Positions 1 to 27,580 of a stretch of 36,207 nt of DNA are shown piece by piece. Position 1 is the stretch's first letter; each line of letters begins with the position of its first letter. The DNA lies in the IMG/VR virus record IMGVR_UViG_2541047897_000007, positions 1 through 36,207 of that record, one strand, 5' to 3'. Under the pieces are notes generated by a model. That model was not told the origin of the DNA. It ran no database searches and saw nothing but the letters and a program-made list of their open reading frames with translations. Position numbers and translations under genes: made by a program. The stretch is from a virus (Duplodnaviria; Heunggongvirae; Uroviricota; Caudoviricetes).

Positions 1-1002
1 TTACCCTCTATTGTCAAAAGGGTTCAATTCAACAGCAGCCTCTAAATGACCTGGAGCAAAATGCGCATAACGCATAGTCATTTTTATATCGCTATGCCCC
101 AGTATTTTTTGCAACACAAGAATATTTCCGCCCCGCATCATAAAATGACTGGCAAACGTGTGACGTAGCACATGAGTTAATTGCCCATCAGGAAGCTCGA
201 TCTTCGCTCTCTTAATTGCAGCGTCAAAAGCCTCATAACATGGTGAAAATAGCGCTCCTCGTTTTTTGGGAAGCATAGCCTGCAATTGAGGTGAAATCGG
301 TACAGTGCGGTTCTTCTTTCCTTTAGTTTTAACAAATGTGATTCGACCGGGCAGTACTTGAGATTGCTTTAATCCTTCTGCTTCACTCCACCGAGCACCA
401 GTCGCAAGCCCAATACGGACAACAACCCCCAAATCTTTATTCCGTGACTCATCACACGCAATCAGAAGGCGTTCAATCTCATCTACATACAGAAACGCCA
501 GTTCCTTTTCTTCCTCACGAAACTTGCGAATACCAGTCAGGGGGTTTTCACCAGACCACTCCCCAAGGCGCTTCAGTTCGGCAAAAACAGCATGTAGATA
601 TGACTGCTCGCGATTAACGGTTGCTTCACTAAGTTTTTTCTTCCCCTTGGGATTCCATTCTCCTGATAGCCTTCTTTCCCGATAAGTGGCAAACATATTT
701 TTGTCAAACTGAGAAGCAAATGGATCTCCCAGCCTGGAACAAATCGCCTCAAGTTTGACTTTGCGCTCTGCACCAGAGGACAAGGTTTTACCGTACATCT
801 CAAACCAACGAGCAATCAACTCAGAAAGACGAGGACCAGAACCATCTTGAAACTCGTCTCCAACTCTACTATTCATTAAACGGCGCTCATAAGAGAGCGC
901 CTCACTTTTTGTCGCAAACTGTTTACGAATGCGTTTTCCCGATGCCCCGTAGGGATAACATTCGCAAAGCCATTTACCTGATGGAATCTTACGAACCGAC
1001 AT
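1..1002 (-). CDS. int: tyrosine-type site-specific integrase
   Basis: 333-aa ORF with stop at 1..3; C-terminal catalytic region HVLRHTFASHFMMRGG...RYAHF matches the tyrosine recombinase signature; sits at the prophage end in P2-like orientation. Confidence 0.9.
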   Translation of the reverse strand: MSVRKIPSGKWLCECYPYGASGKRIRKQFATKSEALSYERRLMNSRVGDEFQDGSGPRLSELIARWFEMYGKTLSSGAERKVKLEAICSRLGDPFASQFDKNMFATYRERRLSGEWNPKGKKKLSEATVNREQSYLHAVFAELKRLGEWSGENPLTGIRKFREEEKELAFLYVDEIERLLIACDESRNKDLGVVVRIGLATGARWSEAEGLKQSQVLPGRITFVKTKGKKNRTVPISPQLQAMLPKKRGALFSPCYEAFDAAIKRAKIELPDGQLTHVLRHTFASHFMMRGGNILVLQKILGHSDIKMTMRYAHFAPGHLEAAVELNPFDNRG

Positions 1003-1007
1003 TTTAG

Positions 1008-1355
1008 TTACTTATCACATAAATCAAATGCAGCCTTAGTGACATCCCCTAGGCTCTTTTTTAACCCTGGGGCGGCATCATTATCTAGCCAAAATGGATT
1101 ATTGTTATCTAACGGTAACGCACCAAATGTTTTACCTTTTATTCGAGCCAAACCTGTAAGTGCATATAACTTATTATCGTCAAAATTCATCACATAAGGA
1201 TTACCATCAAGACACTGTAATTGAACCTCATCAGTATTAAATGGCCATACCCCATTGAAACTCTCACGTTCAATAGTTTTAAAAGGCATTGCGACGGCGG
1301 AAAAAGAAAACATAGATAAAAAAGTAACTAATAGTTGAACCTTTTTTACTTTCAT
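1008..1355 (-). CDS. hypothetical secreted protein
   Basis: 115-aa ORF with N-terminal signal-peptide-like segment MKVKKVQLLVTFLSMFSFSAVA; two Cys residues; lies between int and the repressor operon. Confidence 0.55.
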   Translation of the reverse strand: MKVKKVQLLVTFLSMFSFSAVAMPFKTIERESFNGVWPFNTDEVQLQCLDGNPYVMNFDDNKLYALTGLARIKGKTFGALPLDNNNPFWLDNDAAPGLKKSLGDVTKAAFDLCDK

Positions 1356-1384
1356 ATCATTACCTCAATTTAGCTCAAGTAAGA

Positions 1385-2035
1385 TTACAAATTAAAAAAC
1401 GCCCTAGAAATGACACCGCCTACCAAAACCCCTACGCAGATAAAGAATATTATTTCTTTTGGATAAAGTCGGATTAATTCTGAAGCACGAAGTCGGACTT
1501 CTGGTAAGGTCGAACTCTCTGTGTGGCTTGATGCCGATTGTTGCTCTAACCACGACAATGCAGACTGTAACTGAGAACGAGTAAGATCGTTTAAACGTCC
1601 TGTACCGAAATTGATATGGCAATACCGCAGAAGTTTTTGTCGAAGTCCACAGTCTTCACTGTTACGTAGTAATAAACTTACAAGAGCCTTACAGGCATCA
1701 TGATCTTTACATCGCTCAAGCATTGCATGCAGAAAACTCTCCGCTGTTTTATATTGATTTACTGTCATATCATCAATACCAGCTACACCAATCTCCGCAT
1801 GTACTTTTTGCCAAATAATAAACGCTTCAGTATTGCTAGCTTCTGCAATAGCAGCAACCAAGCTATTCAGCTCCTTACGCTGAGCCTTAAGCAAAGGGCG
1901 ATCGTCATCATCATTATTCGAAGGGATTGCGATATTGACGGTATGAGAACCATCATATCGCTCTATCTGAATATTCTTTTCGTGAAAATCACGCCCAGCA
2001 ACGCGATTGTTTGAACCGTTTGAGTTGACGGCCAT
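1385..2035 (-). CDS. hypothetical protein with C-terminal transmembrane anchor
   Basis: 216-aa ORF; C-terminal hydrophobic helix IIFFICVGVLVGGVISRAFF; starts 15 bp after the repressor stop so probably co-transcribed; N-terminus shares the motif NNR[IV]AGRD[YF] with the repressor C-terminus. Confidence 0.55.
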   Translation of the reverse strand: MAVNSNGSNNRVAGRDFHEKNIQIERYDGSHTVNIAIPSNNDDDDRPLLKAQRKELNSLVAAIAEASNTEAFIIWQKVHAEIGVAGIDDMTVNQYKTAESFLHAMLERCKDHDACKALVSLLLRNSEDCGLRQKLLRYCHINFGTGRLNDLTRSQLQSALSWLEQQSASSHTESSTLPEVRLRASELIRLYPKEIIFFICVGVLVGGVISRAFFNL

Positions 2036-2050
2036 GTCACCTCCCTACTA

Positions 2051-2455
2051 TCACCTACCCTTAGTTTCGTTATAGTCACGACCAGCGATACGGTTATTAC
2101 CACCAGAAATATTTAACTCACGTCCTGATGGCTGAGTTTCCTTTTCACTGATCGCACCTTTTAAAGCCCCAATCACCGCGTTTTTCACATCTAACGAAGC
2201 TGCTCGAAAGCGAGTAATCAACTCCTGCTCATCATCGTTATAAGTTTCAGGTGAGTGAATTCCCAACACAACATACTGAACATCAAGGCCAAAACGAGAC
2301 AGCGCTGCCAAATACGCAGCATCAGGAAAGCTATCTCCTTTCTCATATCTAAGCTGAGTTAGCTTTTTGACTCCACCAATGTCGCTCATGGCAACTTGAC
2401 TAAGTCCCAATCTTTCCCTTTCCTCACGCAACCGCTGACCAATATCATTTTTCAT
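2051..2455 (-). CDS. HTH XRE-family transcriptional regulator, probable prophage repressor
   Basis: 134-aa ORF; helix-turn-helix LSQVAMSDIGGVKKLTQLRYEKG; divergent from the early operon with a promoter/operator-like region between them. Confidence 0.75.
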   Translation of the reverse strand: MKNDIGQRLREERERLGLSQVAMSDIGGVKKLTQLRYEKGDSFPDAAYLAALSRFGLDVQYVVLGIHSPETYNDDEQELITRFRAASLDVKNAVIGALKGAISEKETQPSGRELNISGGNNRIAGRDYNETKGR

Positions 2456-2530
2456 ACAAAAACCTTGACAGGTATCTTTTTTGATACCAAAATGATTTCA
2501 CGAGCTATTAGATGATCACAATATACCACT
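2456..2530. promoter_or_regulatory. divergent promoter/operator region between repressor and early operon
   Basis: TTGACA at 2465..2470, 17-bp spacer, CAAAAT at 2488..2493; the spacer carries the dyad ggtatc-N6-gatacc (2471..2488), a candidate operator. Confidence 0.45.
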
Positions 2531-2737
2531 ATGAAACAAGTTCTTCACGATACCAGATCACGCATTCCGCGTAACACCGCCACAGGTCCAAGACTGGCAC
2601 TTCGGCTGTCCCTCGAGGAGCGAGCCGTCATTGATGAAATGGCAGCTAAAGAACAACGCTCATCCTCTAACATGGCGCGCATGATCTTCCTTCGCGGCCT
2701 AGAGCTAACCCAGAAAGAACAAAACAAATCTTCCTGA
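2531..2737 (+). CDS. small early regulator, possibly ribbon-helix-helix (Cro/Apl-like candidate)
   Basis: 68-aa first ORF of the divergent early operon; RLSLEERAVIDEMAAKEQRSSSNMARMIFLRGLE resembles an RHH/Arc-like fold; no clear Shine-Dalgarno, so the start is uncertain. Confidence 0.45.
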   Translation: MKQVLHDTRSRIPRNTATGPRLALRLSLEERAVIDEMAAKEQRSSSNMARMIFLRGLELTQKEQNKSS

Positions 2738-2753
2738 TCAGGAGGCTAGTGGG

Positions 2754-2957
2754 ATGTCAGGTATAACCATCAATATCAATGTGAATGCCCCCTATGTATC
2801 CCTGCAGAAATATGCAGAGATAACAGGTATCCCTCTTAATACATGCAAAAAGATGTTGGCTGACGGTCGAATTATTATCCGCCCCAAACGCGCCAAAATG
2901 GAAAAGCCTGAAGTAAACCTTGTGGCGATGTTAAAAGACGCTTTGGCTAACAGCTAA
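2754..2957 (+). CDS. Cox-like excisionase / early DNA-binding regulator
   Basis: 67-aa ORF with AGGAGG 6 nt upstream; YVSLQKYAEITGIPLNTCKKMLADGRI resembles the HTH of P2 Cox as recalled from memory. Confidence 0.55.
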   Translation: MSGITININVNAPYVSLQKYAEITGIPLNTCKKMLADGRIIIRPKRAKMEKPEVNLVAMLKDALANS

Positions 2958-2978
2958 AACAATGAACAGAGCACCATC

Positions 2979-3329
2979 ATGAAAAAAAACGCTAATAATC
3001 CATACTCCAAATTTCGTAATGGCGTAGAACGCCATGTACACCACGTCGCTACCAGTGCATCACGTAGTAACAGTCGCTATAACCTGAACGAAACACACGC
3101 AACACCGGATGGCCACGCTGTAAAACAAATCGGCGAGCATACCTGGCTGATTGAGAAAGCTGGAATCGTGGTCCACAAATGCCCACGCAATCCGTTTACC
3201 GGAAACCGCATTTTTGCATTGAGCTGCGGAGACAATCACTTCGGACAGGATTTCACATTATACGAAGCACTTCGCACGGTTGATCGTCTGCTTCGCGGGC
3301 AAAGTTTTATTAAACAGGCTGATTTATAA
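2979..3329 (+). CDS. hypothetical early protein
   Basis: 116-aa ORF in the early operon; no recognisable motif. Confidence 0.45.
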   Translation: MKKNANNPYSKFRNGVERHVHHVATSASRSNSRYNLNETHATPDGHAVKQIGEHTWLIEKAGIVVHKCPRNPFTGNRIFALSCGDNHFGQDFTLYEALRTVDRLLRGQSFIKQADL

Positions 3330-3339
3330 CAGGTGCTTT

Positions 3340-3654
3340 ATGACCAAAGAGCATGCACAAGGTGTATTTATCCGTTTTATTGATTTTCGCGGTGAACTGT
3401 TATTACGCGCATCCGCTATTGATGGAGTGGCTCCGGCGGGTAAAAACGGAGCCGACGAAGCCACTTACGTTTATCTGAACGGCACGCGACTGCTTGTGGA
3501 ACTTCCGTACCAGACCGTACGAGAAATCATTAGTGAAGCTGAAAAGGCACGCCTGGCTAATGGCGTGAACCCTATATCGAAATTATTTGTATGGATTCAG
3601 AAACTGAAATTCAGAAAGCAGATTAAAGGGCGTTGCGATGGGCAAAGAATATAA
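3340..3654 (+). CDS. hypothetical early protein
   Basis: ATG at 3340 chosen over the upstream-extended ORF-track start at 3280 to avoid overlap with the preceding gene; 104 aa. Confidence 0.45.
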   Translation: MTKEHAQGVFIRFIDFRGELLLRASAIDGVAPAGKNGADEATYVYLNGTRLLVELPYQTVREIISEAEKARLANGVNPISKLFVWIQKLKFRKQIKGRCDGQRI

Positions 3655-3880
3655 AACTCTCATTAACAAAGCACTTGAGCGTTTTTATTTTCGCTTAAGT
3701 GCATCAGGCGCTCATGCTGAACGAGCAGCCCGTGACTCATTGACCAGGGCAATCCGGAGTCTGTATGACGTGGCTTTTTACGCTGATGATCTGGATGCAC
3801 TTAACGAACTTTCCGAGCTGATCTGTGCCGCAGAATGCGGGGAACATATTGAACCGTATAAGCTGGGAAATATTGCATGA
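3638..3880 (+). CDS. hypothetical early protein
   Basis: 80-aa ORF, start overlaps the upstream stop (translational coupling). Confidence 0.5.
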   Translation: MGKEYKTLINKALERFYFRLSASGAHAERAARDSLTRAIRSLYDVAFYADDLDALNELSELICAAECGEHIEPYKLGNIA

Positions 3881-3990
3881 GTATATTTATCTCATGGCTT
3901 GTTCTGATTATTTCGGTGGCCTGCGCCATTGGGATTATGCGAATTATTCATTCAGTAAAAAAGATTGAACGCTTTTTCACTGGTGAATAA
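3877..3990 (+). CDS. small hydrophobic peptide (37 aa), putative membrane peptide
   Basis: ATG overlaps the previous stop (atga); MSIFISWLVLIISVACAIGIM is a single predicted TM helix; below the ORF-track size cutoff and read by hand. Confidence 0.3.
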   Translation: MSIFISWLVLIISVACAIGIMRIIHSVKKIERFFTGE

Positions 3991-4083
3991 CGATACAAAT
4001 AAAGCATCAAATTAAATAAGAAAACGTGAAAACCATCCGTATTAACGGAGGTATTCGCACACGCAAATAACGGAGATACAAAA

Positions 4084-4494
4084 ATGCACGCAAAAGAAGA
4101 AGGTATCATCAGAGCACTGAAAGAAATTTCAAAGACAGAAAACGAAGTAGCGAAAAAAGCCGTGGCAAATGCACATATGGACGTCGCAACCCACACACTG
4201 ATAGTCGCAAGAGTCACGGCAGAAGCAGCCGAAATTATCGCAAAACAGGATGCTGAACTGGCGGTTCTCAGAACACAACCAGTCACCGGACTGGATTTGT
4301 CTAACACCGGACGCCTTATTTACACAATTGGCTCGGAGCTACAGCGATACACCATTATCGCCGGATTACAGGATAAATACCTGATCACTCCTCACCCCAT
4401 AAGGGAATCAGAAATTCTGACAAATCTCCGCCTGATAGAACGCTCTCAAGTTGTATTCATTGATGACGCGCAATGTGCCGTATTTAACGCATAG
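4084..4494 (+). CDS. hypothetical protein
   Basis: 136-aa ORF preceded by a 94-bp AT-rich gap and a GGAG RBS; may have its own promoter. Confidence 0.55.
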   Translation: MHAKEEGIIRALKEISKTENEVAKKAVANAHMDVATHTLIVARVTAEAAEIIAKQDAELAVLRTQPVTGLDLSNTGRLIYTIGSELQRYTIIAGLQDKYLITPHPIRESEILTNLRLIERSQVVFIDDAQCAVFNA

Positions 4495-4517
4495 GGTTAC
4501 TGGACAAAGGGGGCGCA

Positions 4518-4721
4518 ATGGCAATTAAGCATTTTCCCGTCGTTCGCTTTACCTCCAGAGGGCGCGAATACGAGGTCGACGAACGCCTGATTACCACTAT
4601 CGACAAACATCGTTCGGAAAAGGATGCACACCACATCTACCTCACTGACGGCACTTACTTCTGCGCCACCAACGTGGCGCGGGTGAATCTTATCCGACAG
4701 GTACAGGAGCCACGCAGATGA
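4518..4721 (+). CDS. hypothetical protein
   Basis: 67-aa ORF with RBS aaggggg. Confidence 0.5.
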   Translation: MAIKHFPVVRFTSRGREYEVDERLITTIDKHRSEKDAHHIYLTDGTYFCATNVARVNLIRQVQEPRR

Positions 4722-4984
4722 CCATTCTGGACTACATCGCTACTCATCCGGGGTGTAGCGGCGGAGAGATCGCCGCAGCACTGAATACCCCAACCACAGC
4801 CATTAATGCTGAGTTACGCCGACTTTGGCGCGGCGGCTTAGTCATCAGAACAAACCGCAGCACAGGTGGTCGCGCTCGCAAAACAGGAGGCCAGGCTTCT
4901 TACCACGTAAACCCGATGCTGTTCGGGTGTAGTAATCCACTTACTCACATGTTTAACCAGCTACTGAAGGAAGCCAGAGCATGA
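4718..4984 (+). CDS. hypothetical protein, possibly winged-helix DNA-binding
   Basis: 88-aa ORF with AGGAG RBS; ILDYIATHPGCSGGEIAAALNTPTTAINAELRRLWRGGLV resembles a winged-helix recognition unit. Confidence 0.5.
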   Translation: MTILDYIATHPGCSGGEIAAALNTPTTAINAELRRLWRGGLVIRTNRSTGGRARKTGGQASYHVNPMLFGCSNPLTHMFNQLLKEARA

Positions 4985-5281
4985 GCACCATCAACCACCA
5001 GAAGCTACGCGAACTGGCATTTGCCCTGCAACGAATGGCAACGCCTCAAAAATTACTGGCATTTCGCGCAATGCTCTCGCCGTCTGCTGTGCTGGCACTG
5101 CTGGATCAGCTGGAGCACGCCAGAACCACTGCTCCAGCCATTCGCCTCACGCTCCATCATGAAATCGCTGATTTCTGCGCAACGCTGGGGGGCACCTGGC
5201 GAACCGGAAACGCCGGAAGCAATGCAGCAAGAGCTGCTGCAACGCATCGATAACGTTTTTGATTTTTTTCTGAACCAGTAA
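4981..5281 (+). CDS. hypothetical protein whose reading frame is broken at a G6 homopolymer
   Basis: ORF 4981..5253 and overlapping ORF 5021..5281 both look protein-like; they join into one product of about 100 aa if the G run at 5187..5192 were one G shorter. Confidence 0.4.
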
Positions 5282-5402
5282 GAAACCAGAACATGCACAC
5301 ACAAAAAAACCGCTTGCCATGCCTCAATCGGTCAGGTTACATTTCCGCTGCACCTCATAAAACGGGTGCCGGGATTCTCAACCCGATACAGAGCAAAGCG
5401 CA

Positions 5403-5428
5403 TAACCGCGCAAGCGGTTTTTTTGTGC
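5403..5428 (+). terminator. candidate rho-independent terminator
   Basis: aaccgc-GCAA-gcggtt hairpin followed by ttttt; also forms one arm of an 18-nt perfect inverted repeat with 5299..5316. Confidence 0.35.
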
Positions 5429-5603
5429 GTACTGTATTGCCACGTCTTTTTCGCGTCAGAATTATGGCGGGGCGTACGGGGCCGACTTCGGTCGGGCCGG
5501 ATTCTTTGCTCTCCGGTGTTGAGAACCCTGTACGTCTCGCCACCCCGAGATTCTCAACTCTGGATGGTGAGTTATTTCTATCACCGAGCAAAGAGGCCAC
5601 ACC

Positions 5604-5834
5604 ATGGCAGACCGCAAACAGCACCGCGCTATCGCGGAGCGTCGTCACATCCAGACTGAAATCAACCGCAGACTTTCCCGCGCATCACGCGTCGCGCAAA
5701 TCATGCACATCAATATGCTGCATGAGCGCAGCCACGCACTATCAAACATTTATTCCGCCTCTGTTTTCAGCTATCTGGCGGATGATCTGCACGAGCTTCA
5801 ACAGCTCATCCAGCAGCAAAACAAACTCCATTAA
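5604..5834 (+). CDS. hypothetical protein
   Basis: 76-aa ORF with RBS agagg 8 nt upstream; basic N-terminal half. Confidence 0.5.
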   Translation: MADRKQHRAIAERRHIQTEINRRLSRASRVAQIMHINMLHERSHALSNIYSASVFSYLADDLHELQQLIQQQNKLH

Positions 5835-5906
5835 TTCCTGTTCCGGGCCTTTCCTGCACCTTGCGGCGGGAGGCCTTCGCACATCTGTAACAAGAGGATT
5901 GCCGCA

Positions 5907-6272
5907 ATGATTCTCGCCAACGACTTTCTTGAATACCTGCTCAACACAGAGCGTGATCTTGCCGCTCGCGTGCGTGATCGTTATGACATGTACCTGAAAT
6001 CCCTGCCTGTACCGCAGCTCGCTGACGGAAAGATTGTTATTGATGGTCGCTACATGATTGACAGCCACGAGGGAAATTACAGGCTTTCCCGCATTGAAGG
6101 TGGCACCCCGTCCGTTATTGGCATTTACCAGCGCCCATCCTCTGCAATCGTCGATGTGATTGCCGACAGCATCCGCATCACACATCGCCATGCCGACACA
6201 GAAGACACCGTGCTGGAAATTCAGCGGCTGGCTACAGTCTGCCGCGACACCCTGAATGGCATGACGAAGTAA
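5907..6272 (+). CDS. hypothetical protein
   Basis: 121-aa ORF with RBS agagga; immediately upstream of gene A. Confidence 0.55.
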   Translation: MILANDFLEYLLNTERDLAARVRDRYDMYLKSLPVPQLADGKIVIDGRYMIDSHEGNYRLSRIEGGTPSVIGIYQRPSSAIVDVIADSIRITHRHADTEDTVLEIQRLATVCRDTLNGMTK

Positions 6273-6278
6273 ATCACT

Positions 6279-9101
6279 ATGACGGCAGAGTACATCAGGG
6301 ACTGGCAACAACCGCGCCACGCAGTGGGGCGTGAAGGAACGGGGATCCCCGCTCCTGAATCCGCGCTTTCCTCCTGGCTGGATGCCTACCGGGTAGAGAA
6401 CGAGCGCCGCCAGGAAATGGCTGATGCGGCGTTCTCCGCCACGCCGCTGGGCAACCTGATTAATAAAAGCCTGGACGCACAGGAAAAACAGGACAAAACC
6501 ATCACACTGGCAGGAGACGCCAGAAAACAGGCACGCGGCGCAGTGGATGAAGCCATGACCTCGCTGCGCCTGCTGCCGTCCTATCTGCGCGATCCGCTTA
6601 TTCGCCACCTCTCCTTCCTGCGCAAAAAACAGGAAGCCGATCGCCGGAAAGGCAAAAAGAGCTGGCAGGCGGAACGCTATGCACGCGGAACCCTGCGCAA
6701 AATATTCGAACGTCTGGACCGCACCGATCACCGCTGGCTGACACCGGGTTATCGCTCCCTTGCCGGACGCGAACGCCTGGACGATTTGCTTTACCTGCCG
6801 CAGCTCAACAAACACCAGATACAGACGCTGGCCACCATGACGGCGGCGATGTTCAGCAGCACCTTCGAAAAACTCTGCGATGGCTTTGGCGCGACTGATG
6901 GCGAACTGACCATGGATGTAACGCTGAAGGCGTATCAGATGCTGGCCCGCATGGCGTTACACCTGCACGCCATGCCTCCACATTATGACGCACTGACAAC
7001 AGACAAAGACCGGAGGAACGAACCGGACACAGAGCTGCTGCCGGGCGCAATCCTTCGCCTGACCTGTGCGGAATGGTGGAAACGCAAACTGTGGCTGTTA
7101 CGTTGCGAGTGGAGAGAAGAACAACTCCGCGCCGCCTGTCTGGTTTCCAGAAAAACATCGCCCTATCTGAGCCAGGACGCGTTAAGCGAGTTTCGCGCAC
7201 AGCGCGAGAAAACACGCGATTTCCTGAAAAGTTTCATGCTGGAAAACGAAGACGGGTTCACGATTGATCTCGAGACAGTGTATTACGCGGGAGTAAGTAA
7301 CCCGGTTCACCGTAAGGCAGAAATGATGGCCACCATGAAGGGACTGGAACTTCTGGCCGAAGCCCGTGGCGACAGAGCGGTGTTTCTGACTGTCACCTGC
7401 CCGTCAAAATACCACGCAACAACGGAGAACGGTCATCCGAACCCCAAATGGAACGGGGCCACCATGCGCGACTCCAGCGATTACCTGGTTAACACGTTTT
7501 TTGCGGCGGTCCGCAAAAAACTGAACCGCGACGGCCTGCGCTGGTATGGCATCCGCACGGTGGAGCCTCACCATGACGGCACCGTGCACTGGCATATGAT
7601 GGTCTTTGCTCATCCGGAAGAAATCGACAGCATCGTGGCCATCACCCGCGATATTGCCATTCAGGAAGACCGCCACGAGCTGGGCAATGATATTACTCCG
7701 CGCTTTAAAGTGGAGTATGTCGACGGCTCAAAAGGCACACCAACCAGCTATATCGCGACCTACATCGGGAAAAACCTGGACAGCCGCGCCGTGGATGGCA
7801 TCGACCCGAAAACGGGCAAACCACGCGTTGACCACGAAACCGGAAAATCAATGGCCGAGAGCGTGGAGCGCGCCATCGGTTGGGCACGCCTTCACCGGGT
7901 CCGCCAGTTCCAGTTCTTTGGCATCCCCTCCCGTCAGGTGTGGCGTGAACTCCGCCGCCTTGCCAGCCAGATGGCACGCAACCCGGAAGGCCCGCAACGG
8001 CTGAAGGATGACGCAATGGATGCGGTACTCGCTGCCGCTGATGCCGGATGTTTTGCCACCTACATAGAGAAACAGGGCGGCGTACTTGTTCCACGCAAAG
8101 ACTACCTGATTCGCACCGCCTACGACCTCGCCGATGAGCTGAACGATTACGGCGAACAGAGTGTACAGATTTACGGGATCTGGTCACCACTCATCGGGGA
8201 ATCCTCCCGTGTGTGCACGCACCCGGATAACTGGAAGCTGGTAAGACGTAAACCGGAACAGGAAGGCAGCGCCCACGAAAATGGTTTTGACCTTCAGGGC
8301 GGCCCTGCCGCCCCTTGGACTCGTGGCAATAACTGTCCCCGTGTACAGGAAACGGACAACAACGGGACAGAACAGCCGGAAGAACGGCCAGCACCGTGGC
8401 CGCAGCTCCCTGACGGCGTTGAAGTGAACGAATGGATGCGCTCACTGAAACGGCACGAACGCCGGGCGCTGATGCGTTCGCTTCGTGACAAACAGGCAAA
8501 AAACAGCAGTGATGAAATGCAGAGCTGGACACAGAGCCGCAAACAGCAGCGGCCTTTGCCTGATAACCACGAATTACTCGCTAAAGAATGGCGGGAGTCT
8601 GCTGAATCTCTCGGCCTGCATATCGGTGAACAACAGATGCAGCACCTGTTACGGGGCGGCAGTCTGTACGTTGACGGCAGCATCATTGCACCGCAGGGAT
8701 TTGAAATTGTACGCAAACCGGATACCCGCCCGGACAGCCGAATCACGCAGCTCTGGCAGCGCCTGAGCCGTAATCACGGCGTAAGCAGCACGGAGATCCG
8801 CCATAACCCGGTCGCCAGCTATCTGGCGCAACTGGGGGCATCAGACCCTGAAGCCGCCGCACGCCTGGCATCCACACTTCAGCAGGACCAGAACACCATG
8901 AAAACACCCGTTACCGTGCTTTCTGACATGCTGCGCGCCATCCGCGACACAGAGCACGCACAGAGAATCAGTGAAACCACTGAACGCGCCCGCCGCAAAG
9001 CAGACCTGCTGCGGGGTGGCCTGACCATTGGAAACAAAAAACAGACAGAAACGGGATTCACAAATCCCGTAAATGAGCAAAAAACGCGCCGCGATATATG
9101 A
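6279..9101 (+). CDS. A: replication initiation endonuclease (P2 gpA-like, rolling-circle HUH nuclease)
   Basis: 940-aa ORF; HUH-type motif VHWHMMVFAH and tyrosine pair in SYIATYIGK; position after the early operon as in P2. Confidence 0.9.
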   Translation: MTAEYIRDWQQPRHAVGREGTGIPAPESALSSWLDAYRVENERRQEMADAAFSATPLGNLINKSLDAQEKQDKTITLAGDARKQARGAVDEAMTSLRLLPSYLRDPLIRHLSFLRKKQEADRRKGKKSWQAERYARGTLRKIFERLDRTDHRWLTPGYRSLAGRERLDDLLYLPQLNKHQIQTLATMTAAMFSSTFEKLCDGFGATDGELTMDVTLKAYQMLARMALHLHAMPPHYDALTTDKDRRNEPDTELLPGAILRLTCAEWWKRKLWLLRCEWREEQLRAACLVSRKTSPYLSQDALSEFRAQREKTRDFLKSFMLENEDGFTIDLETVYYAGVSNPVHRKAEMMATMKGLELLAEARGDRAVFLTVTCPSKYHATTENGHPNPKWNGATMRDSSDYLVNTFFAAVRKKLNRDGLRWYGIRTVEPHHDGTVHWHMMVFAHPEEIDSIVAITRDIAIQEDRHELGNDITPRFKVEYVDGSKGTPTSYIATYIGKNLDSRAVDGIDPKTGKPRVDHETGKSMAESVERAIGWARLHRVRQFQFFGIPSRQVWRELRRLASQMARNPEGPQRLKDDAMDAVLAAADAGCFATYIEKQGGVLVPRKDYLIRTAYDLADELNDYGEQSVQIYGIWSPLIGESSRVCTHPDNWKLVRRKPEQEGSAHENGFDLQGGPAAPWTRGNNCPRVQETDNNGTEQPEERPAPWPQLPDGVEVNEWMRSLKRHERRALMRSLRDKQAKNSSDEMQSWTQSRKQQRPLPDNHELLAKEWRESAESLGLHIGEQQMQHLLRGGSLYVDGSIIAPQGFEIVRKPDTRPDSRITQLWQRLSRNHGVSSTEIRHNPVASYLAQLGASDPEAAARLASTLQQDQNTMKTPVTVLSDMLRAIRDTEHAQRISETTERARRKADLLRGGLTIGNKKQTETGFTNPVNEQKTRRDI

Positions 9102-9146
9102 AGCGCGCATAAAACAGGCAAAAACGGGATTTCAGAATCCCGTAAA
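9049..9146. promoter_or_regulatory. two 25-bp dyad repeats, candidate centromere/operator for the downstream parMR-like operon
   Basis: aaacgggattcacaaatcccgtaaa (9049..9073) and aaacgggatttcagaatcccgtaaa (9122..9146), each an 8-bp-arm inverted repeat, spaced 73 bp; the first lies inside the 3' end of gene A. Confidence 0.4.
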
Positions 9147-9177
9147 CGATTAATTAATCAACATAAGGAAAAGCGAC

Positions 9178-10137
9178 ATGAAAATTTGTATCGATGACGG
9201 CTCCACCAACATCAAGCTGGCATGGACTGAGAACGGCGAACGCCGCAACGCCATCAGCCCAAACAGCTTCAAGTCGGAATGGTCTGCGCCGTTCGGTGGC
9301 ACGCAGCCCGCGAACTACATGCTTGATGGCGTGCGCTATGGTTTTGATCCGGTCAGCGATCGCTTTGTCCAGACGACCGACACGCAATACCAGTACAGCG
9401 ATGTGAATGTCATTGCCATTCATCACGCGCTGGTCAAATCAGGCATCACACCACAGGAAGTGGATGTGGTTGTCACCCTGCCACTGAGCGAATATTTCGA
9501 CACAAACGCACAGCCGGTCATGGCCAACATCAACCGCAAAAAAGCAAACGTCATGCGCCCGGTGGCGTACCAGAACGGAAAAGCATTCACTATCCGTAAC
9601 GTACGGGTTATGCCTGAATCCATTCCGGCTGGTTTTAAAGCACTGGCTGACATGAGTCCGTTTGAATCCCTGCTGATTGTGGATTTAGGCGGAACCACGC
9701 TGGATGTGGCAAAGGTTCAGGGACAACTGGCAGGTATCAGCCAGGTGTTTTGCGATCCACACGTAGGCGTTTCCCTGATGGCCGATGCCGTACTGTCGGT
9801 GATGGCCACTAACGGTATGCGTACCAGTCACCACATCGCCAATACCATTATCGAACATCGCCATGATGAAGCTTGGCTGCGCCAGCACATCCACAATGAC
9901 GCGCATTACGACAGCCTGATAGCGGTTATTCGTGAAAAGGAAGAAACACTGAAACAACGCGTGATCCGCGCGCTGGCGGGTTTTTCGGGTTACGGGCGGG
10001 TGATGGTTGTCGGTGGCGGGGCGGAGATTGTGGCACCCGCTATCCGCGAAGCCTGCGGAGTTAATGCGACTTTCATCGCGGACGGGGTGCCACAGTTTGC
10101 TCTGGTTAATGGGCTGTACGCAATGGACAAGGAGTAA
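9178..10137 (+). CDS. parM: ParM/StbA-like actin-type segregation ATPase
   Basis: 319-aa ORF; actin-fold motifs IDDGSTNIKL, IVDLGGTTLD and VVGGGAE; close match along its length to plasmid R1 ParM as recalled from memory. Confidence 0.85.
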   Translation: MKICIDDGSTNIKLAWTENGERRNAISPNSFKSEWSAPFGGTQPANYMLDGVRYGFDPVSDRFVQTTDTQYQYSDVNVIAIHHALVKSGITPQEVDVVVTLPLSEYFDTNAQPVMANINRKKANVMRPVAYQNGKAFTIRNVRVMPESIPAGFKALADMSPFESLLIVDLGGTTLDVAKVQGQLAGISQVFCDPHVGVSLMADAVLSVMATNGMRTSHHIANTIIEHRHDEAWLRQHIHNDAHYDSLIAVIREKEETLKQRVIRALAGFSGYGRVMVVGGGAEIVAPAIREACGVNATFIADGVPQFALVNGLYAMDKE

Positions 10138-10141
10138 ACCA

Positions 10142-10453
10142 ATGACGACACCAACCAGACGGATAAGTTTCTATCTGAAGCCCGCCGCCGTCAAGAACGA
10201 AGGCGAAGCATGCGCCTGGCTGGACAGCCTTACACCAGAAGCCCGCAAAAGTGGTCAACGTGTGGCTTTTCTGGCCGGACTGGCACTTATGAAAATTAAT
10301 CCGGCAGAGGCTTACCGACTGGCTGCATGGGCTGACGATGAAGCGTTATCCCTGACACAAACCAGGACAGAACGCCCCGTGTCACAGCCAGCACCAACCG
10401 CACAGATAACCAGTCAGATGGCCGGAAATATCCGGGCGTTATTTCCCGAATAA
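10142..10453 (+). CDS. parR: ParR-like centromere-binding adaptor (candidate)
   Basis: 103-aa product from the ATG at 10142 with AGGAG RBS; RRISFYLKP...AGLAL...LFPE resembles R1 ParR as recalled from memory; position directly after the parM-like gene. Confidence 0.55.
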   Translation: MTTPTRRISFYLKPAAVKNEGEACAWLDSLTPEARKSGQRVAFLAGLALMKINPAEAYRLAAWADDEALSLTQTRTERPVSQPAPTAQITSQMAGNIRALFPE

Positions 10454-10516
10454 CACAACATCAGGGCGCATCCGCCCTGATGACTTTAACCCGGGAACAT
10501 AAACAAGGGGGACACA

Positions 10517-10849
10517 ATGCAACACATTGACAGAGAAAAAGCGCAGCGACTGATTGAGCGGATGGAAGCGCTGGCGCAAGAAGAAAATGTCAACATCCAA
10601 AAAATAGCTGAATGTGGCCAGATAGTTCTTCGTCGTGAAAAAGACCTCAAACAACTGATGTCTGGCAAAACCAGCAAAACATGGGATTCAGGCGAGGAAA
10701 TGATTTATTGCAGCTTCTGCAATAAATCCCAGTACGAAGTCACAAAGGTGATTGCTGGACCGTCTGTTTACATCTGCAATGAGTGCGTGGATTTGTGCAA
10801 TGAAATTATCAGGAGAGAAGTGGCAGACAAAAAGGGAAAAAACACATGA
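10517..10849 (+). CDS. stand-alone ClpX-type C4 zinc-finger (ZBD) domain protein
   Basis: 110-aa ORF with strong RBS; C-terminal [38 protein letters not shown] is near-identical in pattern to the E. coli ClpX N-terminal zinc-binding domain, including the spacing of all four Cys; no AAA+ module follows. Confidence 0.75.
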
Positions 10850-11160
10850 ACAGAAAACAAAAACAAGAGTTGAAATACTTTTTACGTAAAGAAATTGCCA
10901 GGCTTGAAGATGCAGAATCACGATCATCAGAAATTCCGTTCGGAATGGATATCAACGACGCCCGTATGCTCCAGGCATACCGTATAGCTCAGGCTGCACT
11001 ACAGGCAAAACCGTCAGATGGACTGGTTAGAGCAGTACGTTTCTATGAACTGGTAAAGCGTGAGAATCCGCCAACCGAAACCGGAGCATGGAAAGACGCT
11101 GTTGACTGGGTGCTCAGAGAAGCTTGCCAGACTGTAAACATTGGTATCAAAGGAGAGTGA
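10846..11160 (+). CDS. hypothetical protein
   Basis: 104-aa ORF, start overlaps the upstream stop. Confidence 0.55.
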
Positions 11161-11162
11161 GA

Positions 11163-11654
11163 GTGCAGATTTCACCGGTTACTCTTCGTGTTGCGAAGGC
11201 ATTTATATCCAGACATCACCGACACAATAAACCCCCGGTGGGGCATAAATTCAGCATTGGTCTGAGAAATGATGCCGGAGAATTGATAGGTGTGGCGACA
11301 GCCGGTCGACCTGTTGCACGACATTTGGACGATGGATTAACGCTTGAAGTAAATCGCACATGTACCACAGGAGAACGCAACGCTAACAGCGCGCTTTATG
11401 GTGCTGTCTGGCGGGCAGCAAAAGCTATGGGTTATCAACGTTGTATTACGTACACCCGGGCAGATGAATCAGGAGCATCTCTTCGCGCAGCTGGTTTTGT
11501 TCGTGTGAAAGAGCTTCCTCCAAGAAAAAGCTGGGCGGAATCAAGCGTCGCCCTGCGGAGTAAACGCGATCCGGTCGGAAACGGTGGTGTTCCTCGTGTG
11601 CTCTGGGAAATCAGGAGAATGAGTACCACTGGCATTCGCATCAAAGGAGAGTGA
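11163..11654 (+). CDS. hypothetical protein (weak GNAT-like resemblance)
   Basis: GTG start at 11163 with AGGAG 6 nt upstream preferred over the overlapping ATG at 11124; 163 aa. Confidence 0.45.
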   Translation: MQISPVTLRVAKAFISRHHRHNKPPVGHKFSIGLRNDAGELIGVATAGRPVARHLDDGLTLEVNRTCTTGERNANSALYGAVWRAAKAMGYQRCITYTRADESGASLRAAGFVRVKELPPRKSWAESSVALRSKRDPVGNGGVPRVLWEIRRMSTTGIRIKGE

Positions 11655-11655
11655 T

Positions 11656-11919
11656 ATGGCAACTTTAACAAAAAAAGAACGGGCATGGTTGAATGAATTA
11701 CAGGACGTTCTTGATCGCTGCCCATCACCGAAAAAAATTGGTTTTTACACCATTGGCGATAAAAGCATTTACCTGTATGACCTGCGCCGCATGGATGAAA
11801 TCATGGAGGCTCTTGATAATCGTTCGTCAATGGATTGGTGTGTTGCTGTTCATGATATGAATGCAGGGTTTGATGAAAAGATTTTGTTCCCCTCATCAGT
11901 TGAAAGCACAGCAGGATAA
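11656..11919 (+). CDS. hypothetical protein
   Basis: 87-aa ORF starting 2 nt after the upstream stop, preceded by the same aaaggagagtga junction seen at 11149..11160. Confidence 0.55.
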   Translation: MATLTKKERAWLNELQDVLDRCPSPKKIGFYTIGDKSIYLYDLRRMDEIMEALDNRSSMDWCVAVHDMNAGFDEKILFPSSVESTAG

Positions 11920-23365: not shown

Positions 23366-23966
23366 TTCGTTGTTACCCCCATCAGCCAGCAATTTCATGC
23401 GTTGTGCCGAAGCCGTCGGAACACGCATTACAGACATTCCGGTAGACCTCAACACGTTGTGGTCGCCGGACACCTGCCCGGTGCATCTGCTGCCTTATCT
23501 CGCCTGGGCGTTTTCCGTTGACCGCTGGGATCGCAACTGGCCGGAAGAGACAAAGCGACAGGTGATTCGTGATGCATGGCTGATACACCGACACAAAGGG
23601 ACCATCAGCGCACTGCGAAGAGCCGTGGAGCCTCTCGGCTACCTGATTGAAGTAAAGGAGTGGTGGCAACTCAATGAGGAGCCTGGGACATTTCGCATTG
23701 TTGTCGGAGTACTTGATCAGGGCATCACCGATGAAATGCATCAGGAACTTGAACGCCTTATTGCGGATGCAAAACCAGTAAGTCGCCATCTGACAGGGCT
23801 GGCGATCAGTCTGAGTGTGAACGGAAAGATTTTCGTTGGTACGGGATGCTATCACGGCGATGCCCTGACGGTTTACCCCTACACCCCGGAGTCCATTATT
23901 GTCGAAGGGGATTATTTCTCTGCCCCGGCCATTCATTTAATTGATAATCTGAGAGTAAACGCATGA
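23358..23966 (+). CDS. I: baseplate/tail protein I
   Basis: ATG at 23358 preferred over the upstream ORF-track start; WSPDTCPVHLLPYLAWAFSVD matches the conserved P2 gpI N-terminal region as recalled. Confidence 0.8.
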   Translation: MSNSLLPPSASNFMRCAEAVGTRITDIPVDLNTLWSPDTCPVHLLPYLAWAFSVDRWDRNWPEETKRQVIRDAWLIHRHKGTISALRRAVEPLGYLIEVKEWWQLNEEPGTFRIVVGVLDQGITDEMHQELERLIADAKPVSRHLTGLAISLSVNGKIFVGTGCYHGDALTVYPYTPESIIVEGDYFSAPAIHLIDNLRVNA

Positions 23967-26134
23967 CAATGAAATACTACGCCATTCTGACTAATCAGGG
24001 CGCGGCACGACTGGCTAACGCGACGATGCTCGGCAGTAAGCTGAATCTGACGCAAATGGCCGTTGGTGATGCAAATGGTGTGTTACCAACACCAAACCCT
24101 GCACAAACAAAACTGATTAACCAGAAACGCATTGCACCGCTGAATCTTCTGAGTGTTGACCCTAACAATCAGAGCCAGATTATTGCGGAGCAAATTATCC
24201 CTGAAGACGAGGGAGGATTCTGGATCCGTGAGATTGGTCTTTATGATGATAAAGGTGTACTCATTGCGGTGGCAAACTGCCCGGAAACGTACAAACCGCA
24301 GTTGCAGGAAGGCAGTGGACGCACCCAGACTATCCGCATGATTCTGGTTGTCACGAACACCAAAGCCATCACGCTGAAAATCGACCCGTCTGTGGTTCTG
24401 GCAACCCGCAAATATGTGGATGATAAAATCTCAAAGCACGAGCAGTCACGACGTCACCCGGACGCCTCGCTGACCGCAAAAGGCTTTGTTCAACTTAGCA
24501 GCGCCACGGACAGTCAATCAGAAACTGAGGCTGCCACGCCGAAGGCTGTGAAAATCGCGTATGATCTGGCCCGGGGAAAATACACAGCCCAGGATGCAAC
24601 AACGACCCGTAAAGGGATCGTACAACTGAGCAGTGCCATCAACAGCACGTCTGAAACGCTGGCCGCCACACCAAAAGCCGTCAAGGCTGCATACGACCTT
24701 GCAGCTGGCAAGGCACCCGTCAGCCACACTCACCCGTGGAGTCAGATAACGGGAGTGCCTGCTGCCTCGCTGACGGCAAAAGGCACCGTACAACTGAGCA
24801 GTGCCACGGACAGTCAATCAGAAACTGAGGCTGCCACGCCGAAGGCTGTGAAAATCGCGTATGATCTGGCCCGGGGAAAATACACAGCCCAGGATGCAAC
24901 AACGACCCGTAAAGGGATCGTACAACTGAGCAGTGCCACCAACAGCACCTCTGAAACGCTGGCCGCCACACCAAAAGCCGTCAAGGCTGCATACGACCTT
25001 GCAGCCGGCAAGGCGCCCGTCAGCCACACTCACCCGTGGAGTCAGATAACGGGAGTGCCTGCTGCCTCGCTGACGGCAAAAGGCACCGTACAACTGAGCA
25101 GTGCCATCAACAGCACGTCTGAAACGCTGGCCGCCACACCGAAGGCCGTCAAGGCTGCATACGACCTTGCAGCCGGCAAGGCGCCCGTCAGCCACACTCA
25201 CCCGTGGAGTCAGATAACGGGAGTGCCTGCTGCCTCGCTGACGGCAAAAGGCACCGTACAATTGAGCAGTGCCATCAACAGCACGTCTGAAATACTGGCC
25301 GCCACACCGAAAGCGGTCAAGGCTGCATACGACCTTGCAGCTGGCAAGGCACCCGTCAGCCACACTCACCCGTGGAGTCAGATAACGGGAGTGCCTGCTG
25401 CCTCGCTGACGGCAAAAGGCACCGTACAATTGAGCAGTGCCATCAACAGCACGTCTGAAATACTGGCCGCCACACCGAAAGCGGTCAAGGCTGCATACGA
25501 TCTGGCAAACGGAAAACAACCGGCAGATGCCACGCTCACTGCTCTGGCAGGACTTGTCACTGCAGCAGATCGGTTGCCTTATTTTACCGGAGCAGACCGC
25601 GCAGCGCTGGCAACCCTTACAGCTATTGGTCGCGCTATTATCGCTAAGGGCAGTATAAAAGATGTCCTCAATTACCTTGGTTTGGGAGAAGGTTCTCCAG
25701 CTATTGGCGTTCCGTTCTTCTGGCCGTCCGCCGCAATGCCAGATACCGTAATCAAAAGCTGGTCCAGTATGGTGTTTTTGAAGTTCAACGGGGCGAAATT
25801 TTCTGCCTCTGATTACCCTGTGCTGGCAAAAGTGTTTCCTTCGCTGGTATTACCTGAAGCCCGCGGTGATTTCATTCGTATCTGGGATGACGGGCGAGGT
25901 GCAGACGGTGGTCGCAAATTATTAAGCTGGCAGGCAGCTACAAACTTTTCTCAGTTTGCCGGGAATATAGGCGGAGGTGCGGGACACGCAATTAATTTTC
26001 ATGATGGCATCGCCGGAAATCAGCCAGGATTTTCACGATTTAATTTCACCAGTAACTCTTTGGGTGATGGTGTGAATTTTGTTGCTGTCAGACCGCGAAA
26101 TATTGCATTTAACTTTCTGGTGAGGGCTAAATAA
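23963..26134 (+). CDS. H: tail fibre protein (P2 gpH-like) with internal tandem repeats and an invertible C-terminal segment
   Basis: 723-aa ORF; N-terminus MKYYAILTNQGAARLANA is gpH-like; internal 100-aa and 56-aa repeats; C-terminal 148 aa lie inside the invertible segment. Confidence 0.9.
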   Translation: MTMKYYAILTNQGAARLANATMLGSKLNLTQMAVGDANGVLPTPNPAQTKLINQKRIAPLNLLSVDPNNQSQIIAEQIIPEDEGGFWIREIGLYDDKGVLIAVANCPETYKPQLQEGSGRTQTIRMILVVTNTKAITLKIDPSVVLATRKYVDDKISKHEQSRRHPDASLTAKGFVQLSSATDSQSETEAATPKAVKIAYDLARGKYTAQDATTTRKGIVQLSSAINSTSETLAATPKAVKAAYDLAAGKAPVSHTHPWSQITGVPAASLTAKGTVQLSSATDSQSETEAATPKAVKIAYDLARGKYTAQDATTTRKGIVQLSSATNSTSETLAATPKAVKAAYDLAAGKAPVSHTHPWSQITGVPAASLTAKGTVQLSSAINSTSETLAATPKAVKAAYDLAAGKAPVSHTHPWSQITGVPAASLTAKGTVQLSSAINSTSEILAATPKAVKAAYDLAAGKAPVSHTHPWSQITGVPAASLTAKGTVQLSSAINSTSEILAATPKAVKAAYDLANGKQPADATLTALAGLVTAADRLPYFTGADRAALATLTAIGRAIIAKGSIKDVLNYLGLGEGSPAIGVPFFWPSAAMPDTVIKSWSSMVFLKFNGAKFSASDYPVLAKVFPSLVLPEARGDFIRIWDDGRGADGGRKLLSWQAATNFSQFAGNIGGGAGHAINFHDGIAGNQPGFSRFNFTSNSLGDGVNFVAVRPRNIAFNFLVRAK
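24461..25500 (+). repeat. in-frame tandem repeat array within H (2 x 300 bp, then 2 x 168 bp plus a partial unit)
   Basis: near-identical units starting at 24461, 24761, 25061, 25229 and 25397, encoding ASLTAKGTVQLSSA...HTHPWSQITGVPA. Confidence 0.85.
25665..25690. repeat. left crossover site of invertible segment (gix/hix-like), inside H
   Basis: ttggtttgggagaa at 25677..25690 is the exact reverse complement of ttctcccaaaccaa at 27501..27514; it encodes the LGLGE junction of H. Confidence 0.6.
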
Positions 26135-26727
26135 TGAAACCTGTTTTTGATGAAAATGGGCTGGCTACAGTGCCGGGCGATATGCGTTGTTTTTATTATG
26201 ATGCTGAAACATCTGAGTATACGGGCTGGTCTGATGAATATATTAATACTGGCGTAAGTATGCCCGCCTGTTCCACTGGTATTGACCCTGGCGAAAACAT
26301 TCCGGGAAGAGTGGCAGTATTTACAGGTAAGGGATGGAGCCTTGAAGAAGACCATCGCAATGAGACTGTTTACTCAATCGAAAATGGTGCTGCTGTTACA
26401 GTGGATTATATCGGTGCCATCAAAAACGGTTATGTCACGCTTTCACCGTTAACGCCATATGATAAATGGGATGGTGAGAAATGGGTGACAGATACTGAGG
26501 CACAACACGGTGCCGCAGTAGAAGCGGCAGAAGCACAGCGCCAGTCACTGATTGATGCTGCAATGGCCTCCATCAGTCTGATTCAGCTGAAATTACAGGC
26601 CGGGCGGAAGCTGACGCAGGCAGAAACCACCCGGCTTAACGCCGTGCTTGATTACATTGACGCGGTGACGACAACAGATACCAGCACCGCGCCGGATGTC
26701 ATCTGGCCTGAACTGCCGGAGGCGTAG
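26134..26727 (+). CDS. G: tail fibre assembly chaperone (P2 gpG-like)
   Basis: 197-aa ORF translationally coupled to H; conserved Tfa-like C-terminus LDYIDAVTTTDTSTAPDVIWPELP. Confidence 0.8.
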   Translation: MKPVFDENGLATVPGDMRCFYYDAETSEYTGWSDEYINTGVSMPACSTGIDPGENIPGRVAVFTGKGWSLEEDHRNETVYSIENGAAVTVDYIGAIKNGYVTLSPLTPYDKWDGEKWVTDTEAQHGAAVEAAEAQRQSLIDAAMASISLIQLKLQAGRKLTQAETTRLNAVLDYIDAVTTTDTSTAPDVIWPELPEA

Positions 26728-27139
26728 GCCATTCAATATCTGGCGCACCGGAAGTATCGACCAGTTCCAGTGCGTCCAGATAATCCAGCCACAAATTATA
26801 TTGCGCCAGTTCCTCACCTTTCAGACGACCAATAGCCGCTTTACCAGGCCATTGTTTACTGTTCATATAATCGTTGGCCTGATTAATCAGTTGCTGCTTT
26901 TCCTGTTCGGCTGCAGCAATCTGTTCCTCATGTGTTGGTGGTGGAATTTCAGACCATGCAGGAAAACCATTTTCTCCAGCGATACGGATTTTTCCTTTCG
27001 GCGGTAATCCGGAAAACTCAATATACACTTGCTCATCAACTTCAACAGCATCATCTGGCCATGAGTCAGCTTGTGTGTAATCCTCTTTCATCTCCAAGGG
27101 ATAGAAAGAGTTTGTCGTCGCGGAATATATGTAATTCAT
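26699..27139 (-). CDS. alternative tail fibre assembly chaperone (G'), inverted orientation
   Basis: 146-aa ORF on the opposite strand with Tfa-like C-terminus LDYLDALELVDTSGAPDIEWPTPP; convergent with and overlapping G, as in Mu G-segment / P1 C-segment architecture. Confidence 0.75.
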   Translation of the reverse strand: MNYIYSATTNSFYPLEMKEDYTQADSWPDDAVEVDEQVYIEFSGLPPKGKIRIAGENGFPAWSEIPPPTHEEQIAAAEQEKQQLINQANDYMNSKQWPGKAAIGRLKGEELAQYNLWLDYLDALELVDTSGAPDIEWPTPPAVQAR

Positions 27140-27161
27140 TTTTTCACTCCATATAGCTAAA

Positions 27162-27514
27162 TTAACAGCCTAACGCTAAAAATGAAGCGCCGAGGCCAGG
27201 AGTACTGGCTCTGGATATAAATTTAACCGGGTCGGAACTAAAACCTGCACAGGCAATATAACCAACAGCCCCGCTATCTGGTGTGTAGTCTTGTGAGACC
27301 AAAACACGCAGACATCTGTTTGGAAATGCAATCGGGAAATGGGTTACTACATCCTGTGCAATGCCTGGTGCGCCGATTGAGCCCCACTGAAGAATAAAAC
27401 CAGATGGTAATTTTTGATATCCAGTACCTGAAACAGAAAGCGTGAAGCTACCCATATCAGGTATCTGATTCGTCCCTGTCCCCACATTCCTTTTTGCCGC
27501 TTCTCCCAAACCAA
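27162..27514 (-). other. promoter-less alternative C-terminal coding segment of the tail fibre (H' variable part)
   Basis: minus-strand frame open from the right crossover site to a stop at 27162; encodes ...[10 protein letters not shown]..., matching the LGLGE junction in H; would fuse to H after inversion. Confidence 0.6.
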
Positions 27515-27526
27515 CGTTTTCGTTTT
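27501..27526. repeat. right crossover site of invertible segment (gix/hix-like)
   Basis: ttctcccaaaccaacgttttcg fits the Din-family crossover pattern (TTCTC..AAACC-NN-GGTTT) recalled from memory; 55 bp upstream of the invertase start. Confidence 0.6.
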
Positions 27527-27580
27527 TATCCCTACCTATACCAACTCTGTATTTTTCACGAAACAAAGAGGATGTTTTTT

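Follow-up and report, generated by a model that had tools for sequence, protein, structure and literature searches.

Does the early gene that begins at position 4981 of this prophage encode one protein broken by a genuine mutation, is it switched or recoded, or does the break reflect a sequencing error? The initial annotation had placed a run of six Gs (G6) at 5187–5192 within an early gene of roughly 100 aa, and had offered a recent pseudogenising indel, a sequencing error, and a slippage-prone contingency site as explanations. The window, that is, the whole 36,207-nt stretch that was analyzed, belongs to the P88 type of P2-like prophages (Xuanwuvirus, Peduoviridae). Its integrase gene is at 1–1002 (minus strand), the early operon is oriented to the right, and the gene for the replication endonuclease gpA (6279–9101) is followed by those for head, lysis, and tail. 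The replication, head, tail, and lysis genes are full-length ORFs of the expected sizes, and the prophage is apparently intact.

Directly upstream of the broken gene lies an 88-aa MarR-like winged-helix gene (4718–4984, plus strand; PF12802, 31.5 bits, in agreement with the annotation in relatives). Its stop codon overlaps the ATG of the broken gene within the ATGA at 4981–4984, and the two genes are therefore probably translationally coupled in the early operon. Since the related phages 520873 and 503458 match the MarR-like gene and show no match to the broken gene, the latter is an accessory gene. On its downstream side, an isrK Hfq-binding sRNA (5350–5424, plus strand; Rfam, 63.1 bits) and a C4 antisense RNA (5460–5547, plus strand; Rfam, 78.5 bits), both above the gathering score, are followed by a 76-aa gene of the 'Derepression' family (5604–5834; PF25738). 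Promoter-like hexamers precede each RNA gene (5314–5343 for isrK and 5437–5465 for C4), the isrK terminator lies at 5404–5419, and isrK, C4, and the 'Derepression' gene together look like an sRNA-controlled anti-repressor module. Two long ORFs, at 5293–5910 (plus strand, 205 aa) and 5742–6815 (minus strand, 357 aa), overlap the isrK/C4/derepression region and the gpA start; the former is called in place of the 76-aa gene by some gene callers (loci L017, L018, L021, and L023). These ORFs are probably spurious because they cross two RNA genes.

Read directly from the letters, the six Gs lie at 5187–5192 within 5180–5199 (caacgctGGGGGGcacctgg, plus strand). The frameshifted ORF (4981–5253, plus strand) starts with ATG and encodes 90 aa; its first 70 residues are the authentic N-terminal part of the protein, and residues 71–90 (GTWRTGNAGSNAARAAATHR) form an out-of-frame tail that runs up to a premature stop codon. 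It is overlapped by an ORF in the +1 frame (5021–5281, plus strand) in the ORF list, with a TTG start, 86 codons, and a stop codon at 5279–5281. When one G is deleted from the run, the two ORFs are joined into a single 99-aa product, MSTINHQKLRELAFALQRMATPQKLLAFRAMLSPSAVLALLDQLEHARTTAPAIRLTLHHEIADFCATLGAPGEPETPEAMQQELLQRIDNVFDFFLNQ, which is identical, residue for residue, to WP_000104305.1, the product of an annotated 300-nt CDS in close relatives. The initial annotation was thus right that the run splits a gene of about 100 aa and that removal of one G restores a single product. Its assignment of the two halves was borne out: the N-terminal part lies in the ORF at 4981–5253 (plus strand, residues 1–70), and of the ORF at 5021–5281 (plus strand), only 5193–5281 is real coding sequence, its first 170 nt being an alternative frame of the N-terminal part. 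This stranded segment (5193–5281, plus strand), now in the +1 frame, encodes APGEPETPEAMQQELLQRIDNVFDFFLNQ followed by the stop codon, and comprises a linker and the conserved last helix. Insertion of the G thus shifts the frame past residue 70, exchanges the last 29 residues for 20 unrelated ones, and brings the stop codon forward by 28 nt. Independent translation of the stranded C-terminal piece was considered and rejected: no Shine-Dalgarno-like sequence was seen before the only internal ATG (5159), and the corresponding 40-aa product was absent from the protein collection.

In an alignment with three relatives, the only gap fell exactly inside the G run, showing that the break is not a matter of chance, and G6 versus G5 was the sole change in the gene relative to loci L001 and L004. 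In its G6 form, as opposed to the G5 form, the site reads GCAACGCTGGGGGGCACCTGG. A 351-nt region had matches in 1,051 of 5,426 complete E. coli genomes, and the best of these was 99.7% identical with 350 record bases, so that one missing G is the only difference. The gene is present in a single frame in about 860 of the 5,426 genomes, or about one in six, and homologues at 71–97% identity are likewise single proteins of 98–104 residues; among the orthologues, none consisted of two conserved small proteins. The G5 tract that the initial annotation had proposed to look for in related prophages was found as predicted, and its first explanation, a recent pseudogenising indel, is supported both by these single-frame G5 orthologues and by the recurrence of the allele in independent assemblies.

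The intact counterpart, WP_000104305.1, is annotated as a 99-aa 'hypothetical protein' and occurs in the P88-like prophages of E. coli O157, O145, and many other strains, where its gene occupies the same place as the broken gene, between the MarR-like gene and the isrK/C4/derepression module. The window differs from it in having G6 instead of G5, with residues 71–99 replaced and a product of 90 aa. In P88, the type phage of the genus, the orthologue at the same early-operon position is gp10 (YP_009113053.1, 104 aa, labelled 'ead/Ea22-like family protein'). The C-terminal segment of gp10 is almost identical at the protein level to that encoded in the window, and is followed by a 5-residue C-terminal extension overlapping the next gene; P88 also has extra downstream genes, for a membrane protein and a lipoprotein, that the window lacks. 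At the place of the G run, P88 reads CTG GAG TCA (Leu-Glu-Ser) and thus has no slippage-prone tract, and in most homologues residue 71 is Ser or Val instead of Ala.

The repaired protein belongs to phrog_4144 (E = 3.9e-62, residues 1–99 on profile positions 1–99), a family listed in PHROGs as of unknown function. An NCBIfam search with the 99-aa protein gave nothing meaningful, and a PDB profile search returned one chance-level match and no sequence relative. Pfam PF13935 (Ead_Ea22) scored 20.2 bits, below its gathering threshold of 27, for residues 25–50 (...LLAFRAMLSPSAVLALLDQLEHARTT) on profile positions 57–82; the same family has precomputed matches in some close relatives, and RefSeq labels P88 gp10 'ead/Ea22-like'. 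The Ea22 protein of phage lambda, which is expressed early and is pro-lysogenic, forms a tetramer and contains a coiled coil as well as a separate C-terminal domain (PMC10834534, PMC7093339). Like Ea22, the protein studied here is a small prophage product expressed early. By contrast, the Ea22 architecture of an N-terminal domain, a coiled coil, and a carboxy-terminal alpha-beta domain (PMC10834534) was not found in the 99 residues and four helices of the protein studied here. In view of the missing Ea22 C-terminal domain, the protein cannot be assigned to that family, nor can the pro-lysogenic function be carried over to it.

An AlphaFold model of the 99-aa protein was of moderate confidence (pLDDT 67) and all-helical, with helices at residues 6–18, 22–31, 34–69, and 78–98 and no strands. 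The break at residue 70/71 would fall after helix 34–69 and before helix 78–98, so that the PGEPETPE linker and the last helix are lost. Residues 72–96 were invariant or nearly so in 33 homologues of 71–100% identity, and the dN/dS values relative to P88 were 0.030/0.513 (a ratio of about 0.06) for codons 71–99 and 0.074/0.167 for codons 1–70. The sequence downstream of the run is thus constrained in the orthologous frame and not in the new one, and, judged from these substitution patterns, no part of the protein is under stronger constraint than the C-terminal segment that the insertion removes. It is tempting to speculate that the 99-aa protein is probably a modulator acting through protein–protein contacts.

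Given that the insertion removes the most constrained helix, the 90-aa product is probably inactive and the allele probably null, as far as can be judged from conservation; in terms of the model, the retained 70 residues with their three predicted helices could still fold and act. No polar effect would be expected, because the premature stop is displaced by only those 28 nt and the next protein gene lies 320 nt downstream, behind its own RNA genes. The gene is presumably dispensable for the phage, which would allow the allele to persist as a nearly neutral pseudogene.

The exact 90-aa product was found on 55 contigs from independent projects, including EQX76083.1 (strain UMEA 3193-1) and GDQ92016.1 in the protein collection. 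At the DNA level, G6 was present in the assembled sequence of ten loci, in seven NCBI assemblies and three SRA runs, so that at the level of assemblies the allele is reproducible in independent data from different projects. Over 15,253 nt, the window matched contig KE701963.1 (E. coli UMEA 3193-1) at 100% identity. It differed by three single-base indels from its closest complete relative, O145 RM8988-C1 (99.0% identity over 23.6 kb); two of these (15627 and 18473) are intergenic, and G6 is the only indel inside a coding region. An error-prone assembly was rejected on account of this low number of indels.

In the sequence index, 74 blocks contained the G6 product and 18,183 the intact 99-aa sequence, which puts the frameshifted form at about 0.4% and the intact form ahead by more than 200 to 1; since index blocks are not genomes, the value of 0.4% is approximate. 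With an 81-nt probe that had G6 at its centre, 859 near-full matches were obtained in complete E. coli genomes, and the best of those listed all showed 98.8% identity over 80 record bases. An exact match to G6 over the full length would have ranked first, and none did so among the approximately 860 complete-genome matches, indicating that no complete genome has G6. At a frequency of 0.4%, about three would be expected in some 860 genomes, so that the absence of G6 is a mild shortfall.

To trace the origin of the allele, we compared its surroundings; from the 74 indexed blocks, 24 contigs were read and 10 inspected. Because the look-up was by exact protein sequence, any copy that it returned necessarily shared both the 70 N-terminal residues and the tail. 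The sampled G6 copies lie in P88-like prophages at four chromosomal sites, yecA/tyrP, pdxB/truA, pheA/tyrA, and btuC/btuE, with integrases of 333, 334, 329, and 310 residues and with different immunity genes. Over the 5 kb surrounding the gene, G6 copies differ by up to approximately 230 SNPs. By contrast, all eleven copies are identical to the window across 4496–5320, except for one (L012) at position 5136. The identical block that they have in common around the run measures at least about 1.2 kb. The left part of the block (4496–5135, plus strand) is the same in all eleven and contains a rare synonymous T at 5130 (T5130). It is interrupted at 5136, where L012 has T and the others A, and continues without any difference through the core with the G6 run (5137–5320, plus strand). 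On the left, the first differences appear at 4495 in L013 and at 4451 in the pdxB-site copies L005, L008, and L009. On the right, L010 has a private SNP at 5321, identity continues to 6718 in L005, L008, L009, and L013, and it extends over the whole compared 5 kb in L006, L007, and L014.

T5130 was present in all eleven G6 copies, A5136 in ten, and T5367 in all eleven. An 82-mer with T5130/A5136 was found in 11 of 859 complete genomes, mostly O145 strains, all of them G5, and the sampled G5 copies of this haplotype carry C5367. The marker SNP T5367, by which the G6 haplotype can be told apart from those O145-type G5 copies that were sampled, falls within isrK. None of the ten sampled loci had G6 on the common G5130/T5136 haplotype, which the exact-protein look-up, being blind to these synonymous differences, could equally have returned. 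From the combination of one identical block and the rare T5130/A5136 with differing flanks, integrases, and sites, we infer that a single event gave rise to the main G6 allele, in a rare haplotype known otherwise from O145-type yecA-site prophages, and that homologous recombination later moved it into other P88-like prophages. The O145-like background proposed for this event differs from L004 and L024 by 3 SNPs in 5 kb. For the sampled copies, the haplotype analysis led us to reject recurrent slippage as the origin of the 74 G6 blocks. Since the run has changed length independently elsewhere, a minor fraction of these blocks could still stem from separate events.

Traces of module exchange were also apparent on a larger scale. 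The prophage at the btuC site with the 310-aa integrase (L014) was 99.9% identical to the window over 3026–11672 and unrelated to the left of 3026, and the pdxB-site prophages (L005, L008, and L009) aligned with the window from 4344 on at 98.2% and differed over 1–4343. These are clear mosaic joints: next to a common early region, the modules for integration and immunity have been exchanged.

Several other features of the window were recorded. A second early gene (3340–3654, plus strand) is also frameshifted, with the break between 3565 and 3566, where one A of GGCGATGAACC is missing outside any homopolymer; its normal product of 92 aa becomes a 104-aa read-through product overlapping the next gene. 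This deletion also occurs in O145 RM8988-C1 and in 2011C-3911, in which PGAP labels the gene 'frameshifted', and is for this reason probably older than the G6 insertion. In the tape-measure gene (28708–32076, minus strand), a 105-bp (35-codon) unit is present in six tandem copies at 28950–29579 with 98% matches; the closest complete relative has one unit, and the ORF has 1,122 codons here compared with a 2,808-nt gene there, a difference that could alter tail length. The tail-fibre gene (23963–26134, plus strand) contains in-frame tandem repeats at 24464–25507, with periods of 300 (2.1 copies) and 168 (3.6 copies) and 96% matches each. This repeat region and 23649–27586 showed the strongest divergence of the window from its closest relative.

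Taken together, these results make it highly likely that the break is an inherited, vertically and horizontally transmitted +1 insertion, G5 to G6, that turned an accessory early gene of a P88-like prophage into a slippage pseudogene. Most likely, replication slippage at the Gly-Ala codon pair GGG-GCA would have expanded G5 to G6. A single such mutation would have occurred on the rare O145-type haplotype of a yecA-site prophage, and homologous recombination would then have carried the G6 block into other P88-like prophages. The truncated product would be non-functional and the gene dispensable, so that the allele would be kept as a nearly neutral pseudogene. Ordinary homopolymer-slippage pseudogenes share the change of one nucleotide within a coding mononucleotide run, and the run studied here has also lost a G in other lineages.

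Against this stands the view that the G6 allele is alive, either because a low, tuned level of +1 slippage still yields the 99-aa protein or because the 90-aa three-helix remnant has been selected for an altered function; we consider this very unlikely as a whole. Were the altered-function remnant real, the spread into four P88-like backbones would reflect selection and not neutral hitch-hiking. Selection in its more general form, in which the allele moved into four prophage backbones because either its 90-aa protein or losing the gene confers an advantage, is very unlikely in our judgment. It accords with the occurrence of one identical G6 block in prophages that occupy four insertion sites and differ in their integrase and immunity modules, and with the second frameshifted early gene (3340–3654) in the same lineage. 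Nevertheless, the allele is still rare, nothing apart from identity by descent suggests that the new 20-residue tail is conserved, and module exchange is routine among P2-like prophages, so that a neutral hitch-hiker predicts the same pattern.

Less probable still is recoding, whereby the full-length protein would be made from G6 by +1 ribosomal slippage on CUG-GGG-GGC or by transcriptional slippage. On the sequence alone, re-pairing of the glycine tRNA in the +1 direction on the first GGG would restore exactly ...TLGAPGE.... Slippage at the classic +1 site of E. coli, in prfB, depends on an A-site stop codon together with an upstream Shine-Dalgarno-like element. At the G6 run, by contrast, the next codon, GGC, is neither rare nor a stop, and no stimulator is evident. 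Efficient slippage of RNA polymerase occurs on runs of about nine or more As or Ts and is not known for G6. A leak of about one percent would be expected at best. Moreover, the arrangement in two frames is not conserved: the orthologues are single-frame and P88 lacks the run altogether, which excludes a programmed two-frame gene.

A contingency locus, in which the G run would flip the gene ON and OFF at high frequency to adaptive effect, is lower again in our estimation. Its appeal lies in the repeated length changes of the run: on the common haplotype there are G4 alleles (L025–L029; P0019 on 17 contigs read and P0017 on 5 contigs), and two metagenome contigs of low coverage (L030 and L031) carry G6 on a divergent haplotype. 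These independent G4 and G6 events are rare, however, and no frequent, recurrent ON/OFF length polymorphism was observed. Phase-variable G/C tracts are typically 7–8 nt or longer, whereas the present tract has 5–6 nt, and products of G7 and G8 were absent from the protein collection. Neither is the tract conserved, given GGAGT in P88 and the variable residue 71, mostly Ser or Val. OFF alleles make up well below 1% of copies, with none among the matches listed in the approximately 860 complete genomes, and the main G6 allele is identical by descent across backgrounds and not recurrent. In each of these respects (tract length, rarity and common descent of OFF alleles, and lack of tract conservation), the locus differs from the contingency loci of Neisseria, Haemophilus, and Campylobacter. 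The slippage-prone contingency site suggested by the initial annotation is rejected in view of the shortness of the tract, the frequency of about 0.4% of blocks, and the single origin of the main allele; the length changes at the run are the background behavior of any short homopolymer.

The least probable reading of all, also raised by the initial annotation, is that the true sequence is G5 and the extra G a homopolymer miscall; homopolymers are the classic site of indel errors, G6 was seen in no complete (mostly long-read and polished) E. coli genome among the matches listed, and several one-off frameshift variants near the site, found only in raw-read Logan assemblies, may well be errors, but the identical allele occurs on the 55 contigs of unrelated projects and in at least ten independent assemblies or runs, the window has just those three indels in 23.6 kb, and G6 is always linked to T5130, and to A5136 in ten of eleven copies, a haplotype present in 1.3% of complete genomes, whereas errors would strike haplotypes according to their abundance, so that a one-off miscall is excluded.

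A homopolymer-slippage pseudogene is an ordinary feature of an already known kind, and the finding matters little beyond annotation. There, the two overlapping ORFs should be replaced by one frameshifted pseudogene of WP_000104305.1, and the deposited 90-aa 'phage protein' EQX76083.1 is its truncated form. As a null allele identical by descent across four integrases and attachment sites, G6 would provide a natural marker for the pace of module exchange among P88-like prophages, and the pattern of conservation points to the C-terminal helix as functionally critical in a very widespread, uncharacterised early protein.
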